Shown in pieces: positions 2,234-55,123 of a stretch of 64,000 bases of DNA. A model generated the notes under the pieces. The model was not told the DNA's origin and did no database searches. It saw only the letters and a list, made by a program, of their open reading frames with translations. This DNA is from Escherichia coli (GTDB taxonomy: Bacteria; Pseudomonadota; Gammaproteobacteria; Enterobacterales; Enterobacteriaceae), in assembly GCF_041248615.1 (NCBI RefSeq), contig NZ_CP158426.1; one strand, written 5' to 3'. Position 1 is the first letter of the stretch. Every line of letters starts with the position of its first letter. The position numbers and the translations under genes are program-made.

Positions 2234-5941
<3,708 letters not shown>

Positions 5942-7128: not shown

Positions 7129-7847
7129 CGCAGATGACGACCGCCATCAAGAGGGAAACTGCGTCCGGTGACAAAGCAGCTGGTAAGTAAGTAATCGACC
7201 AGGTCGATTACTTCTTTCTCGCCAGGCGCGGTTTTCATCAGTGATTTATTCAGCGCCTGTTGTCGATATTCGGCATCATCATGCTCATTAAACAGGATCA
7301 GCGATGGCGCAATAGAATTCACTTTCACTTCCGGTGCCAACTTGCGGGCAAACGAGCGGGTCATATTATCCAGTGCCGCTTTGCTTGCAGCATAGGCAAT
7401 ATGTTTGTCGCTACCGCGCTCCACCACATAATCGGTAAAGTGAATAATATCGCTGGCGGCGTGTCCGTGCCCACGCAGTAATCTTTCCAGGGCATGGTTG
7501 AGTAGATATGGGGTATTAACGTGGATCTGCATCATGCAAGCCAGTACGTCGGTCAGTGGTGTACTTGGTTTTTCTGCCATCCACGCGCTGGCGTTATGCA
7601 AAATAGCACGCAGGCCATGGGTGCTTTTTAGTACTTCATCGGCAAACGCCATCACACCGTCGTTGGTCGAAAAATCAGCCTGAATACACTGCGCACCTGC
7701 GTTAATCAGTCCATCAATGGCTGGATAGTGCGTCCGATAGCTGATAATCACCGGTTGCTTTTGATTAATGAAATGCCATGCGAGGGCGAGGCCGATGCGA
7801 CGACCACCGCCAGTAATTAATATTGGCAAGGGCTGGGCTTTACCCAT
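7125..7847 (-). CDS. folM: Dihydromonapterin reductase (SDR family), 240 aa
   Basis: Track ORF 240 aa with SDR Rossmann motif (ILITGGGRRIG); 4-nt convergent overlap with ydgC. Confidence 0.9.
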   Translation of the reverse strand: MGKAQPLPILITGGGRRIGLALAWHFINQKQPVIISYRTHYPAIDGLINAGAQCIQADFSTNDGVMAFADEVLKSTHGLRAILHNASAWMAEKPSTPLTDVLACMMQIHVNTPYLLNHALERLLRGHGHAASDIIHFTDYVVERGSDKHIAYAASKAALDNMTRSFARKLAPEVKVNSIAPSLILFNEHDDAEYRQQALNKSLMKTAPGEKEVIDLVDYLLTSCFVTGRSFPLDGGRHLR

Positions 7848-17447: not shown

Positions 17448-17829
17448 TGTCATACCCTCAATTTGTTTTTTCATTTAACCCCACTGCGGGGCCGTTGAAA
17501 TAACTATATCCCTGGGAATGGCAGACTTCCGTGAGTGGTTGGTTTCAGCGTGTAACGATATGTACAAACGCTGAATAAATTACAGCGTTGATAATAACGT
17601 ATTGTGACTTAAGGGAAATTTAGCTACCAATAATAGTAGTCTTGATCAGGTTAACTATTTTACTACTTACAAAGCGGTAGAATAACTGCGCATCAGTAAT
17701 AAATGACACACAGCAAAATGAATCCGTTTATTTGGGTACTTATAATCCTGATGACACTAGATGCGCTGCGGGAATTGGCTGGCGCTTCGTCTATTTTAGG
17801 ATGGCTATTAACGTTGGTTTGAGCAGGCA

Positions 17830-17871
17830 ATAAGTCCGGATGGGTATTTACCGCAGTCCGGACTTATTTTT
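17830..17871 (+). terminator. Plus-strand intrinsic terminator abutting the ynfM stop codon
   Basis: Perfect 11-bp stem ATAAGTCCGGA/TCCGGACTTAT with 16-nt loop followed by TTTT; orientation is plus although no annotated plus-strand gene lies upstream. Confidence 0.5.
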
Positions 17872-22299: not shown

Positions 22300-23508
22300 A
22301 GTCCGCGAAATTACCGACGCAATTACGCAGGCAATCAATAAACCGGGGAGTAGCTGATACTCCCCGGTCATTTCACATATCATCAACGTCGACATAATCG
22401 GCGCGTGCGTGGTTGCCGCCAACAGTGTCGCCATCCCGGTCAATCCGAGTAAAAGCGTAATTTCTTCGCCATCAGGGAACCATAATCCCAGGCTACGACC
22501 ATACAACATGCCAATGGCAAGACCGATAAATAGCGTCGGTGTAAAGACACCACCGGGCGCGCCAGAACCACTACTCGCCAGCACGGCAAACAGTTTACAG
22601 AGGAAGATCCCGGCAATGATCATTAACAGTGGCGGGGCGGTTAAAAAGGATTGTACGGTGCTATAGCCGTTGCCCCACACTGCAGGTGTGAACAGGGAAA
22701 GCAGCCCCACGATCAACCCGCCCAGTGCCAGTTGCCAGGGCGGCGCAAGTTTGAGACTCACAAATCCACGATGACAGGCGTTCATTAACGTTAACAACAG
22801 TGGTCCGCACAGACCTGCCAGCACACCTGTACTGATAATCAGCGCATAGTCACGAGCCTGAACCGTCACTGAGAGTTGTACGCTGTAGAGTAACGCGTCG
22901 CTATGATTAATCAGATTGCTAACCAGCAACGCCACGACGGCGGAAATAATCACCGGGCCGAGAGAGGCCAACATCATAGTGCCAAACAGCACTTCGGCTA
23001 TAAATAAACTGCCAGCAAGCGGGGCGCGATAGGCCGCAGCCATTCCCGCCGCAGCTCCACAGGCGATCCATAATTTCCACTCCTGGCGTGGCGTAAAACG
23101 TTGGGCAAAACAGGAGGCGGCAAGGGCAGCTAAAAGAATCATCGCACCTTCGCGACCAATTGCACTGCCGCTGGTTACTACCAGCAGAGAGGCAAGCGAT
23201 TTAACCAGGCTTGCTGCGTAATCGAACTGCCCATCGGTTTGCAACGCTTCCATGTAATCGGTCGGCGCATGAGGGCGTTGCTGGGTAAATTTCTGCCAGC
23301 CCATCAGCAACAAACCCGCCGCCAGTCCGCCGAGCGCCGGAGTTAGCAGCCGTCGCCACGGGGAAAGATTTGTCGCTGCATTGACCAGACTGCCCGAGTC
23401 ATTATTGAGGAACAACCACTCCAGTAGCAGCATCGTATGACGAAACCCGGCAACGGCAAAGGCCGCGAGAATACCGACGACTGTTGCGATAAGCAGACGG
23501 CGGAACAT
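22252..23508 (-). CDS. clcB: ClC-family voltage-gated chloride channel, 418 aa
   Basis: Track ORF 438 aa; start placed at [12 protein letters not shown] (complement ATG 23506-23508); GSAIGREG and GGVFTP ClC motifs present. Confidence 0.88.
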
Positions 23509-33149: not shown

Positions 33150-33476
33150 ATGATTAAAACAACGTTACTATTTTTTGCTACTGCGCTGTGTGAAATTATT
33201 GGATGCTTTCTGCCCTGGTTGTGGTTAAAACGAAACGCCAGTATCTGGCTGTTGCTTCCGGCGGGGATTTCTCTGGCACTGTTTGTCTGGTTGTTAACGT
33301 TGCATCCTGCGGCGAGTGGGCGTGTTTACGCGGCTTATGGTGGCGTTTATGTCTGCACGGCGTTGATTTGGCTGCGTGTTGTGGATGGCGTGAAACTGAG
33401 TCTTTATGACTGGACGGGGGCGTTGATTGCGCTTTGCGGCATGTTGATCATTGTTGCGGGCTGGGGGCGCGCGTAA
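33150..33476 (+). CDS. ynfA: UPF0060 small membrane protein, 108 aa
   Basis: Track ORF 111 aa; start placed at [19 protein letters not shown] (ATG 33150). Confidence 0.85.
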
Positions 33477-33520
33477 GGACATAAATCCATTTTATCAATA
33501 AGATACAAGTAAGTGTCAGC

Positions 33521-33552
33521 TGACAAAAGATATTCTATTTCATCTTTTGTCA
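33521..33552. promoter_or_regulatory. Perfect inverted repeat TGACAAAAGAT-N10-ATCTTTTGTCA upstream of rspA (candidate operator)
   Basis: 11-bp arms, 10-bp spacer, centred about 145 bp upstream of rspA ATG; overlaps shorter palindrome GTCAGCTGAC. Confidence 0.4.
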
Positions 33553-33681
33553 ACCATTCACGGCGCAAATATACGCCTTTTTTTGTGATCACTCCGGCTT
33601 TTTTTGATCTTTATACTTGTATGGTAGTAGCTCAGTTGCGTAGATTTCATGCATCACGACAAGCGATGCAAGGAATCGAAC

Positions 33682-34896
33682 ATGAAGATCGTAAAGGCTG
33701 AAGTTTTTGTTACCTGTCCGGGGCGTAATTTCGTCACATTAAAAATCACTACTGAGGACGGTATTACGGGCCTTGGGGATGCCACCCTCAATGGACGTGA
33801 GCTTTCCGTGGCCTCTTATTTGCAGGATCACCTTTGTCCGCAGCTTATTGGTCGCGATGCGCACCGTATCGAAGATATCTGGCAGTTTTTCTATAAAGGT
33901 GCTTACTGGCGTCGCGGTCCGGTTACGATGTCGGCCATTTCAGCGGTTGATATGGCGCTGTGGGATATTAAAGCCAAAGCTGCCAACATGCCGCTTTACC
34001 AGTTACTCGGCGGCGCGTCTCGTGAAGGGGTGATGGTTTATTGCCATACCACCGGTCACAGTATTGATGAAGCTCTGGATGATTATGCCCGTCATCAGGA
34101 GCTGGGATTCAAAGCCATCCGCGTGCAGTGCGGAATCCCTGGTATGAAAACCACCTACGGCATGTCGAAAGGCAAAGGTCTGGCTTATGAACCCGCAACC
34201 AAAGGACAGTGGCCGGAAGAGCAGCTGTGGTCGACGGAGAAATACCTCGATTTCATGCCGAAATTGTTTGACGCGGTACGTAACAAGTTTGGTTTTAATG
34301 AACATTTGCTGCATGACATGCACCATCGCTTAACGCCTATTGAAGCGGCGCGCTTTGGTAAAAGCATTGAAGATTATCGCATGTTCTGGATGGAAGACCC
34401 GACGCCTGCGGAAAACCAGGAATGCTTCCGTCTCATTCGCCAACATACCGTCACACCCATCGCGGTGGGTGAAGTCTTCAACAGCATCTGGGACTGCAAG
34501 CAACTGATTGAAGAGCAACTTATCGATTATATCCGCACTACGCTGACCCACGCGGGTGGCATTACCGGTATGCGCCGGATTGCCGATTTTGCTTCGCTGT
34601 ATCAGGTACGTACTGGCTCACACGGTCCTTCCGATTTGTCACCAGTCTGCATGGCTGCGGCGCTGCACTTTGATCTGTGGGTCCCCAATTTCGGTGTCCA
34701 GGAATACATGGGTTATTCCGAACAAATGCTCGAAGTCTTCCCGCACAACTGGACTTTCGATAACGGCTATATGCATCCGGGAGACAAACCGGGTCTTGGC
34801 ATCGAATTCGATGAAAAGCTGGCGGCGAAATATCCCTATGAACCTGCTTATCTGCCAGTCGCACGTCTGGAAGATGGCACGCTGTGGAACTGGTAA
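33682..34896 (+). CDS. rspA: Starvation-sensing protein RspA (enolase superfamily, mannonate dehydratase-like), 404 aa
   Basis: Track ORF 415 aa; start placed at [17 protein letters not shown] (ATG 33682) with AGGAA RBS. Confidence 0.92.
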
Positions 34897-39316: not shown

Positions 39317-40003
39317 TTACTCTTCGCTAAACCAGTCGCTGTTTTCCTGGCGGATCTGGCGCACGGATTCGCTGATTTCCTGCAAATGTTGCGTCATTGC
39401 ACGTTCTACCGCATCGCCATCACGTTTTTGCAGGGCAGAGAAAATATCAAGATGCTGGCGTAACAGCATTTCTGGTGGAGAAACGTGGTCGAAACTCATA
39501 TAGCGCACGCGATCAACGGTCGCTTTCAGGTTCTCAATGGTATCCCACGCCAGTTGACAGTCGGCAATCTGGGTCAGGAGTTGATGGAAGTTGTCATCAA
39601 GTTCAAAAAAATCATCCAGTTGCTTGCGCTCAATGGCAATGCGTTGCTGGTGAAGATTTTGTTCCAGTTGGTAGCACTGGCTTTCGGTAATCATGCTCGC
39701 CGCCCGACGCGCCACCGCGCACTCAATGGCCTGACGGATAAAACTGCCGTTGCGCACCTGGGCCATGGAAATTTTGTTGACGTAGCTGCCACGCTGCGGA
39801 CGAATTTGAATCAGGCCGTTTTCCGCCAGTTTAATAAAGGCTTCACGAACCGGCTGGCGTGACACATTGAAACGAACAGAAACTTCTTTTTCCGACAACG
39901 GTGTGCCTGGTGCAATCAGGCAATGGACAATGTCGCGACGAAGAATACGATAAATCTGCTGATTGACAGGCTGTGTGGGATTAAGTTGCGTTTCGACGGT
40001 CAT
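39317..40003 (-). CDS. ydfH: GntR/FadR-family transcriptional regulator (RspR), 228 aa
   Basis: Track ORF 228 aa with N-terminal GntR HTH and FCD domain. Confidence 0.9.
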
Positions 40004-43031: not shown

Positions 43032-43061
43032 GGCTGGCCTGGAGAAATCGCCAGGCCAGCC
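43032..43061 (+). terminator. Strong hairpin 12 nt after dcp stop (terminator-like, no U-tract)
   Basis: Perfect 11-bp stem GGCTGGCCTGG/CCAGGCCAGCC with 8-nt loop. Confidence 0.4.
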
Positions 43062-54904: not shown

Positions 54905-55123
54905 CTACATAGCGTGTTGATTATAATAGGGCACGCCGAGCGCATCCGACTTATCACTGCCAGTACCCATGTGATTTAAATCAAACGGTGGTTGTTCCTG
55001 CGATGGGGGAACAACCACGACATTGGCACAGGAAGTAACAACCGGCTGCGTGGTTTGTTCCGCAATGCCCTGCGTGGAAAAGAGAATAAACGCAGCTGCT
55101 ATTGCGGATAAAAGTGGTTTCAT
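54905..55123 (-). CDS. marB: Multiple antibiotic resistance protein MarB, 72 aa
   Basis: Track ORF 72 aa MKPLLSAIAAAFILFSTQGIAEQTTQPVVTSCANVVVVPP... Confidence 0.9.
   Translation of the reverse strand: MKPLLSAIAAAFILFSTQGIAEQTTQPVVTSCANVVVVPPSQEQPPFDLNHMGTGSDKSDALGVPYYNQHAM

Follow-up and report, generated by a model that had tools for sequence, protein, structure and literature searches.

The window analysed here, a 64,000-nucleotide stretch of Escherichia coli DNA (contig NZ_CP158426.1 of assembly GCF_041248615.1), contains the rspAB operon with ynfA upstream of it. The 205-bp ynfA-rspA spacer houses a perfect inverted repeat of two 11-bp arms, referred to below as the palindrome, which we tentatively consider a candidate lineage-specific operator for a still-unidentified repressor of rspAB. 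The bordering genes and the features of the spacer are given in the following lines; promoter positions are relative to the rspA transcription start site (TSS) unless another zero point is named.

33150..33476, plus strand: ynfA, 108 aa
33477..33573, no strand: Escherichia-only segment of about 97 bp that carries the palindrome, from the ynfA stop to the GCGCC-T7-GTGATC module
33514..33525, no strand: overlapping perfect 12-bp palindrome TGTCAGCTGACA, read from the sequence
33521..33531, no strand: left arm TGACAAAAGAT, -131 to -121
33532..33541, no strand: spacer (loop) ATTCTATTTC, 10 bp between the arms
33542..33552, no strand: right arm ATCTTTTGTCA, -110 to -100
33547..33575, plus strand: promoter-like TTGTCA (33547-33552)-17-TATACG (33570-33575) (PMC3946193)
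33562..33585, plus strand: decayed ynfA intrinsic terminator, GGCG-N8-CGCC followed by T7
33580..33607, plus strand: CRP activator site (Reg-Seq 2020 supplement) with TGTGA at 33584-33588 and TGTGATC at 33584-33590, centre -60.5
33613..33622, plus strand: RspR (YdfH) box ATACTTGTAT at about -35, supported by the footprint of PMC8249747, by Reg-Seq 2020 and by 73 of 80 loci
33617..33652, plus strand: rspA core promoter with -35 TTGTAT (33617-33622), -10 TAGATT (33641-33646) and TSS C (33652)
33682..34896, plus strand: rspA, 404 aa, ManD-family dehydratase

The two arms are complementary at 11 of 11 positions, and the whole palindrome measures 32 bp (33521-33552), with its centre at -115.5. Its left end lies 45 bp past the ynfA stop, its right end 130 bp short of the rspA ATG. 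The first-pass annotation had placed a perfect 11-bp repeat with a 10-bp spacer at 33515-33552, about 130-160 bp upstream of rspA. The distance to the gene is correct (ATG at 33682, arms 130-161 bp upstream), and so is the right end; the start was set 6 nt too far to the left, since GTCAGC belongs to the overlapping palindrome TGTCAGCTGACA, and the true start is 33521. The perfect form is indeed present in this strain but represents a minority allele in E. coli. TGTCAGCTGACA and the left arm have TGACA in common, so that 39 bp hold three TGTCA/TGACA pentamers, at spacings of 2 and 22 bp as read from the sequence. With a GC content of 27% the arms are AT-rich, and the sequence on their 3' side is ACCATTCAC, without a T-run. 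Written as a search pattern, the dyad takes a form like TGACAAAAG-N12-16-CTTTTGTCA; the centres of its conserved 9-bp arm cores are 23 bp apart and lie on roughly the same helix face.

Inverted repeats of perfect complementarity, with arms no shorter than 11 bp and a spacer of at most 20 bp, were counted in the window and in 60 dinucleotide-preserving shuffles. The shuffles contained on average 0.28 such repeats per 64 kb, and the analytic expectation was 0.32 per window. For the 205-bp ynfA-rspA spacer alone the expectation is only 0.002, so the palindrome is not a chance match. The window holds six perfect repeats of this kind, the palindrome included. The other five, with arms of 11-12 bp, are found at 7189-7213, 17829-17868, 22342-22368, 43032-43061 and 54988-55018; the first, which has a 1-bp spacer, is located within an open reading frame (ORF), and the remaining four lie just beyond ORF ends and are probably terminators. 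Repeats of such size are therefore ordinary at gene ends, and to call the palindrome unusually long for an intergenic region was an overstatement.

The known regulatory sites of rspAB occupy other positions in the same spacer. Using genomic SELEX (systematic evolution of ligands by exponential enrichment), Shimada et al. 2021 obtained a single RspR peak in the ynfA-rspA spacer; in DNase I footprinting of a 500-bp probe RspR covered one 31-bp stretch centred on ATACnnGTAT, and the rspA TSS was assigned to the C 30 bp upstream of the ATG (PMC8249747). The box overlaps the -35 hexamer TTGTAT of the promoter TTGTAT-18-TAGATT. The mutational scan Reg-Seq 2020, in which zero is ATG-45 (33637) and the stretch from -115 to +45 (33522-33682) was mutagenised, placed CRP at -57 to -30 (33580-33607) and YdfH at -28 to +2 (33609-33639) (PMC7567609). 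The palindrome lies outside both the 31-bp RspR footprint and this YdfH site. No ATACnnGTAT is present within 33514-33552, and the only box in the upstream 400 bp is the one at 33613-33622. The arms also contain no core resembling TGTGA-N6-TCACA: the TGTCA/TGACA pentamers depart from TGTGA at the G that CRP requires, and their spacings are 2 and 22 bp instead of 6. With its centre at -115.5 the palindrome has no activator-like signature at a class I or class II position, and the signature reported for this region is repressor-like.

These positions bear directly on the suggestion of the first-pass annotation that the palindrome is bound by YdfH/RspR, encoded about 6 kb away, or by CRP. The gene in question, taken as ydfH/rspR, is located as follows.

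39317..40003, minus strand: GntR-family regulator gene, 228 aa, beside ydfG, about 5.8 kb from the palindrome

Its proximity is thus as described, RspR does repress rspAB and CRP does activate it, and a near-match to the RspR box can even be found: at 33503-33511, 110 bp upstream of the box, ATACAAGTA exactly matches the opposite strand of the box core TACTTGTAT. This near-match is confined to the rare haplotype of the present strain. Positions 33506, 33507 and 33510 are polymorphic, K-12 reads ATAAGAGGA, and a second RspR box was rejected as haplotype-specific, with three of nine bases variable. RspR gives a single footprint on 33613-33622, CRP acts at TGTGA 33584-33588, neither motif occurs in the arms, and in the preprint introduced below both known sites are seen apart from the site at -100. 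The RspR box is moreover kept in 73 of 80 rspA loci that lack the palindrome altogether. Published footprints and conservation together rule out an operator for RspR or CRP; this reading is largely refuted and we consider it extremely improbable.

A follow-up study (Roschinger et al., bioRxiv 10.1101/2025.05.13.653802, 2026 version) used genome-integrated libraries in 39 conditions. It counts rspAp among eight promoters with a new site of an unknown factor and reports an unidentified repressor-like footprint at about -100, beside visible CRP and RspR sites. Its Supplementary Note gives CRP at -60.5 and RspR at -35. Since these two values fit only if the TSS is 33652, -100 corresponds to 33552, which is the last base of the right arm. 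On the same coordinates the mutagenised stretch from -115 to +45 spans 33537-33697 and includes the right arm but not the left. As the left arm was outside the construct, the full symmetry would not have been visible to the authors of the preprint.

The palindrome accordingly offers a defined candidate operator for an orphan footprint at about -100 that the preprint reports without a sequence rationale. The promoter concerned has served as a 'gold standard', with CRP and the single-target repressor RspR thought to account for it completely. The palindrome has two symmetric half-sites at a fixed spacing, the generic layout of a dimeric operator, and the earlier proposal of a site for a dimeric regulator thus gains a repressor-like footprint that coincides with the right arm, even though the regulators then named do not fit. 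A protein-binding site in this broader sense is plausible, the footprint being one independent, unreplicated hint. We tentatively favour an operator for a further repressor of rspAB. The repressor would bind both 9-11-bp arms as a symmetric dimer or as two dimers and, once bound, would dampen CRP-dependent activation from upstream, through anti-activation, looping or a block of contacts made by the C-terminal domain of the RNA polymerase alpha subunit (alpha-CTD). The A allele at 33530, which completes the 11/11 match, would be expected to strengthen such a symmetric site. That the footprint belongs to a protein recognising the whole palindrome we infer, as the left arm was outside the tested construct; the same applies to the identity and oligomeric state of the protein and to its mode of repression.

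Several observations weigh against such an operator. The positive functional evidence consists of one sentence and one figure legend of the preprint, in which no protein is named. Reg-Seq 2020 covered 31 of the 32 bp of the palindrome, with the K-12 G allele (PMC7567609). Its automated calls under nine conditions (heat shock, iron, arabinose, LB, anaerobic, trehalose, zinc, xylose-arabinose and xanthosine) include no site in the palindrome; all of them fall at -57 to +17 (33580-33654). In the per-base arabinose footprint, the stretch from -115 to -85 has a mean mutual information of about 1e-4 and a maximum of 4.8e-4, like the neighbouring background; the peaks of the same footprint are at TGTGA (1.2-2.4e-3) and at the right half of the RspR box (1.0-2.8e-3). 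Elsewhere in the window the half-site occurs at chance level, with 16 matches against 17.9 expected. The commonest E. coli allele is imperfect (10/11), and the deficit of polymorphism in the arms is not significant, with a single segregating site (singletons excluded) in 22 bp where about 1.9 would be expected, as estimated from the counts. Finally, the palindrome was found in none of the upstream regions of 80 rspA loci of other species, among them three other Escherichia clades, and in the nearest of these, the MOD1-EC7003 clade, the left arm carries three changes and is reduced to 8/11.

The main-text architecture table of Reg-Seq 2020 lists rspA with one new site and the entry 'Mass-Spectrometry (DeoR)' (PMC7567609). 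The accessible supplementary site lists hold no third site and no coordinates for this entry, with all called sites at 33580-33654, and the DeoR entry may be a table inconsistency.

Variation within E. coli was assessed with the 48-mer 33513-33560 as probe in 5,376 complete genomes that have the region. The exact 48-mer, with A at 33530 and hence the perfect form, was present in 273 genomes (about 5%), and the version with G at 33530 (TGACAAAAGgT, 10/11) in 4,631-4,632. Overall, about 86-93% of E. coli genomes carry G where the present strain carries A. Among 97 E. coli metagenome sequences, which were collected via an anchor outside the repeat, 95 had G and two had A, and all fetched E. coli haplotypes except ETEC4068 had G as well. 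G is also the corresponding base in the closest outgroup, Escherichia sp. MOD1-EC7003, so the A is derived. Spacer position 33537 is A or G, with G in Nissle-type strains and in 14 of the 97 metagenome sequences. Across these 97 sequences the right arm showed zero polymorphism, and the arms were the least polymorphic part of the ynfA-rspA spacer (mean pi 0.006 and 0.000, versus 0.019-0.032 in the flanks). A 9/9 core with a 14-bp gap was perfect in all sampled E. coli with the exception of one singleton contig. The overlapping TGTCAGCTGACA is kept in most sampled haplotypes, with T->C at 33514 in three of the 97 sequences and in O145, and is lost in MOD1-EC7003.

The divergent strain 2020CK-00188 has intact 9-bp arms with six of the 14 inner bases changed; in its locus (L113) these six changes are clustered in the inner 14 bp, the equivalent of 33530-33543. 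The arms kept in this strain and the invariant right arm speak for the operator reading, as do the symmetry and the AT-rich, non-terminator character of the arms. Downstream of the palindrome the same strain has features of the cryptic clades, namely an intact terminator, T6 and CTCTGGC, which suggests that the haplotype is a recombinant tract from another Escherichia clade.

The 80 rspA loci mentioned above comprise one per species from Escherichia, Citrobacter, Enterobacter, Klebsiella, Kluyvera, Buttiauxella, Rahnella and other genera, and were searched with up to two mismatches per arm and a spacer of 8-12 bp. The 73 loci with an ATACnnGTAT box have it 64-81 bp before the ATG. A TGTGA half-site is present in all aligned upstream regions, in which TGTGATC is invariant, and GCGCC-T6/7-GTGATC and ATACTTGTATGGTAGT are kept across genera. 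The first-pass annotation had stated that a lack of conservation in other enterobacterial rspA promoters would count against its proposal, and a lack of conservation is what the comparison with the RspR box reveals. Since the palindrome is specific to E. coli, any function it has would be a recent addition outside the conserved regulon. We regard it as a young cis-element confined to E. coli and situated far upstream in the rspAB promoter.

The segment 33477-33573 that carries it occurs as a single copy in E. coli; in the other Escherichia clades it has diverged strongly, and in the SCPM-O-B-8794 clade and E. whittamii it can no longer be recognised. The GCGCC-T-run terminator follows directly on the ynfA stop in Citrobacter and Enterobacter. 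The ynfA-rspA spacer measures 107-112 bp in 25 of the 60 loci with ynfA upstream, and the distance from the stop to TGTGA is hypervariable across genera, ranging from 107 to more than 260 bp. Where the palindrome-bearing segment sits in E. coli, other genera have unrelated GC hairpins or a REP-like (repetitive extragenic palindromic) element. The latter was observed in Pseudocitrobacter faecalis (locus L037, GCCGGATAAGGCGTAATGCCGCATCCGGC), so the spacer repeatedly gains unrelated sequence. At the homologous place, other Escherichia clades have weaker A-run/T-run repeats of 7 bp (L154, L167, L181) or 6 bp (L005).

This lability brings in the reading that the palindrome is a neutral quasi-palindrome in a fast-evolving spacer, with an AU-rich stem-loop in the ynfA 3' untranslated region (3'UTR) as its sole consequence and with a footprint at -100 that is unrelated or a false positive. 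The weaker repeats in the other Escherichia clades fit a labile structure of this sort. The unrelated hairpins and the REP-like element of other genera also speak for this reading, and four of the five other perfect repeats in the window likewise lie just past ORF ends. The perfect allele would then be a single transition, possibly a template-switch 'correction' of the quasi-palindrome. Template-switch correction of quasi-palindromes is a known mutational mechanism in E. coli.

The transcript context is compatible with this reading. Because the palindrome lies between the ynfA stop, 45 bp away, and the terminator, it is expected to be part of ynfA transcripts. Cryptic Escherichia clades (L003, L005, L154, L167, L181) have an intact terminator, GGCGCA-N4-TGCGCC with T6-7, which has decayed in E. 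coli proper: the present strain reads TACGCC, and K-12-type haplotypes additionally have CACAGCGC. Given the decayed terminator, ynfA transcription may read into the rspA promoter region. Folded as plus-strand RNA, the palindrome forms a predicted hairpin of -11.4 kcal/mol (z = -4.4) with the A allele; with the common G allele a G-U wobble preserves all 11 pairs, and the energy is -10.8 kcal/mol. On the minus strand the predicted folds are more stable (A allele -17.9, G allele -13.7 kcal/mol). The wobble pairs point to no particular strand for selection on an RNA, as the A/G site favours the plus strand and the flanking pairs the minus strand. The palindrome was also absent from the terminator scan of the window, and with neither a GC-rich stem nor a T-run behind it, it is ruled out as an intrinsic terminator.

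A neutral stem-loop thus agrees with the Reg-Seq 2020 null in nine conditions and with the polymorphism contrast that falls short of significance. It leaves unaccounted for the repressor-like footprint at the right arm that the preprint describes. The AU-rich stem has no U-tract and is hence not a terminator, and the wobble evidence favours neither strand. The searchable part of a term-seq supplement has no ynfA 3' end or small RNA on record, and a search of Rfam 15 returned no family (best hit 16.1 bits against a gathering score of 80, E = 5.5); a role of the hairpin is hypothetical. We regard this neutral reading as rather unlikely, though it ranks directly behind the repressor operator.

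A further reading involves RNA polymerase itself. By genomic SELEX, Shimada et al. 2014 obtained a peak of RpoD holoenzyme between ynfA and rspA, under which TTGTCA-17-TATACG was listed as the predicted rspAB promoter (PMC3946193). TTGTCA occupies -105 to -100, the outermost bases of the right arm, and TATACG has no final T of a -10 element, for which reason our promoter scan of the window did not list the pair. If this were a non-productive polymerase site overlapping the CRP site, it would be the functional unit and the symmetry incidental; mutation of its -35-like hexamer would raise rspA expression and mimic the loss of a repressor. The position of TTGTCA matches the footprint at about -100 given in the preprint, the missing final T argues for poor open-complex formation, and both hexamers are innovations of E. 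coli proper, with TTTAGA and TATGCG in their place in other clades. The hexamers were, however, picked by inspection under a low-resolution peak that TTGTAT-18-TAGATT explains equally well, and the pair was not confirmed as a promoter by primer extension (PMC8249747), which maps no TSS there, or by Reg-Seq 2020 (PMC7567609). In Reg-Seq 2020 coordinates, neither hexamer gave a signal: all values were at most 1.4e-4 in magnitude at TTGTCA (-90 to -85) and at most 2.2e-4 at TATACG (-67 to -62). The preprint gives one site instead of a -35/-10 pair, and both the left arm and the perfect symmetry would go unexplained. A polymerase site is improbable in our estimation and takes third place among the readings, after the repressor operator and the neutral quasi-palindrome.

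Two symmetric arms around a short spacer also resemble the core sites of tyrosine recombinases, and compared with Citrobacter and Enterobacter the segment is inserted sequence. On these grounds the palindrome might be a site of recombination, or else the remnant or terminus of a mobile element, for example a phage attachment site, a miniature inverted-repeat transposable element (MITE), the end of an insertion sequence (IS) or a REP element. Two strains with foreign DNA close by could be read in the same way, as a prophage integrase fragment abuts at about 33570 in O145 RM8995-C1 and an IS3-family element is found at about 33512 in strain 582. The palindrome is nevertheless single-copy, occurring at one place per genome across the 5,376 genomes, which led us to reject a repeat family or MITE, and it had no match in 50,697 phage records. 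A search of viral contigs with the 9-bp-arm pattern gave 23 matches, of which 19 were E. coli host flank from ynfA-rspA, all with the G allele; the remaining four were unrelated, about the number expected by chance on a rough estimate. In O145 the junction lies 18 bp beyond the repeat, and the integrase joined there is truncated, which marks the junction as a deletion and not an attachment site; the insertion in strain 582, seen in that strain only, spares the repeat. A phage attachment site was rejected on the offset junction with its truncated integrase, the phage-collection null and the host-flank nature of the viral hits. Single-copy occurrence and the lack of any phage match or Rfam family together remove the repeat, attachment-site and known-RNA explanations, and the likelihood of a mobile-element origin is in our view negligible.

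In O145 RM8995-C1 (locus L001, 6001-6800) the truncated prophage integrase is followed by excisionase, exonuclease and dicB genes, and its junction with host DNA, 18 bp rightward of the palindrome, lacks the rspA promoter and start. It is apparently a deletion that runs from a Qin-like prophage into the spacer. In strain 582 (locus L088, 1-300) the IS3-family insertion is at about 33512/33513, immediately to the left of the palindrome, with the end TGAACCGCCCCGGGAATCCTGGAGACTA on the reverse strand; palindrome and rspA promoter are intact.

The repressor operator, which we place first if with reserve, allows a more specific scenario that we hold to be quite unlikely: an operator that arose de novo within the lifetime of the species, inside the spacer formed by the ynfA 3'UTR and terminator, as a third and lineage-specific input to the control of rspAB by CRP and RspR. 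If this were true, the same 32 bp might double as an ynfA mRNA stem-loop, the minority A allele at 33530 would be a natural operator up-mutation, and the locus would provide a dated example of the birth of a regulatory site with both alleles segregating. If the palindrome is inert, the lesson is that perfect symmetry near a promoter, seen in a single strain, may reflect a rare allele of a quasi-palindrome that is not conserved.

Further observations concern the surroundings of the spacer. Downstream of rspA the gene order is rspB, an intact ydfJ-type transporter gene, ydfI and then the GntR-family gene beside ydfG; the intact ydfJ indicates a strain without the Qin prophage. In E. coli O157:H7 F8492 (locus L086, 354-397) rspA is annotated only as an 87-bp 5' fragment, a pseudogene without the C-terminus, and the rspAB operon appears to be disrupted in this strain. 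Genomic SELEX with NtrC gave a moderate peak (41%) in the rspA/ynfA spacer, at K-12 coordinate 1,653,158, and another at ydfI/ydfK (PMC8743547); by eye, we saw no NtrC-like motif in the ynfA/rspA spacer.

Among known systems, the HprR/CusR box at hiuH, CATTACAAAATTGTAATG, consists of two half-sites 2 bp apart (PMC9302797). The arm sequences TGACAAAA and TTTTGTCA match its halves TTACAAAA and TTTTGTAA at seven of eight positions. In the palindrome, however, TGACAA and TTGTCA are 20 bp apart, and in genomic SELEX both proteins are single- or dual-target regulators with no rspA peak (PMC8249747, Table 1); an HprR/CusR box was rejected on its spacing. The RspR operator of rspAB (PMC8249747) resembles the palindrome in being palindromic and located in the same promoter region, and RspR represses the same operon. 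It differs in sequence and position (-35 as opposed to -116), and the palindrome is neither protected in the RspR footprint nor co-conserved with rspA. The class I CRP site at -60.5 shares with the palindrome a location upstream of the core promoter, whereas the palindrome contains no TGTGA-N6-TCACA, has a repressor-like signature and lies 55 bp further upstream.

Within the lac promoter, P2 is a non-productive RNA polymerase site that overlaps the CRP site, relative to P1. The hexamer pair at the right arm is similar to such sites in its near-consensus -35 TTGTCA, its 17-bp spacer, its poor -10 and its placement upstream of and overlapping the CRP site; it differs in that the candidate polymerase site has no Reg-Seq 2020 signal and is known from its sequence and a SELEX peak. 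The operator of the activator MlrA at csgD has the form AAAATTGTACA-N12-TGTACAATTTT, and MlrA-type operators share with the palindrome 11-bp AT-rich arms separated by 10-12 bp, the sequences themselves being unrelated.

The closest functional counterparts of a repressor operator at this position would be the distal or auxiliary operators upstream of CRP-activated promoters, such as those for CytR anti-activation at deoP2 and the upstream operators of gal and lac. The palindrome differs from these in being confined to one species. What they have in common is a repressor-like element upstream of a CRP site, from where direct occlusion of RNA polymerase is not possible and repression would need looping or anti-activation.

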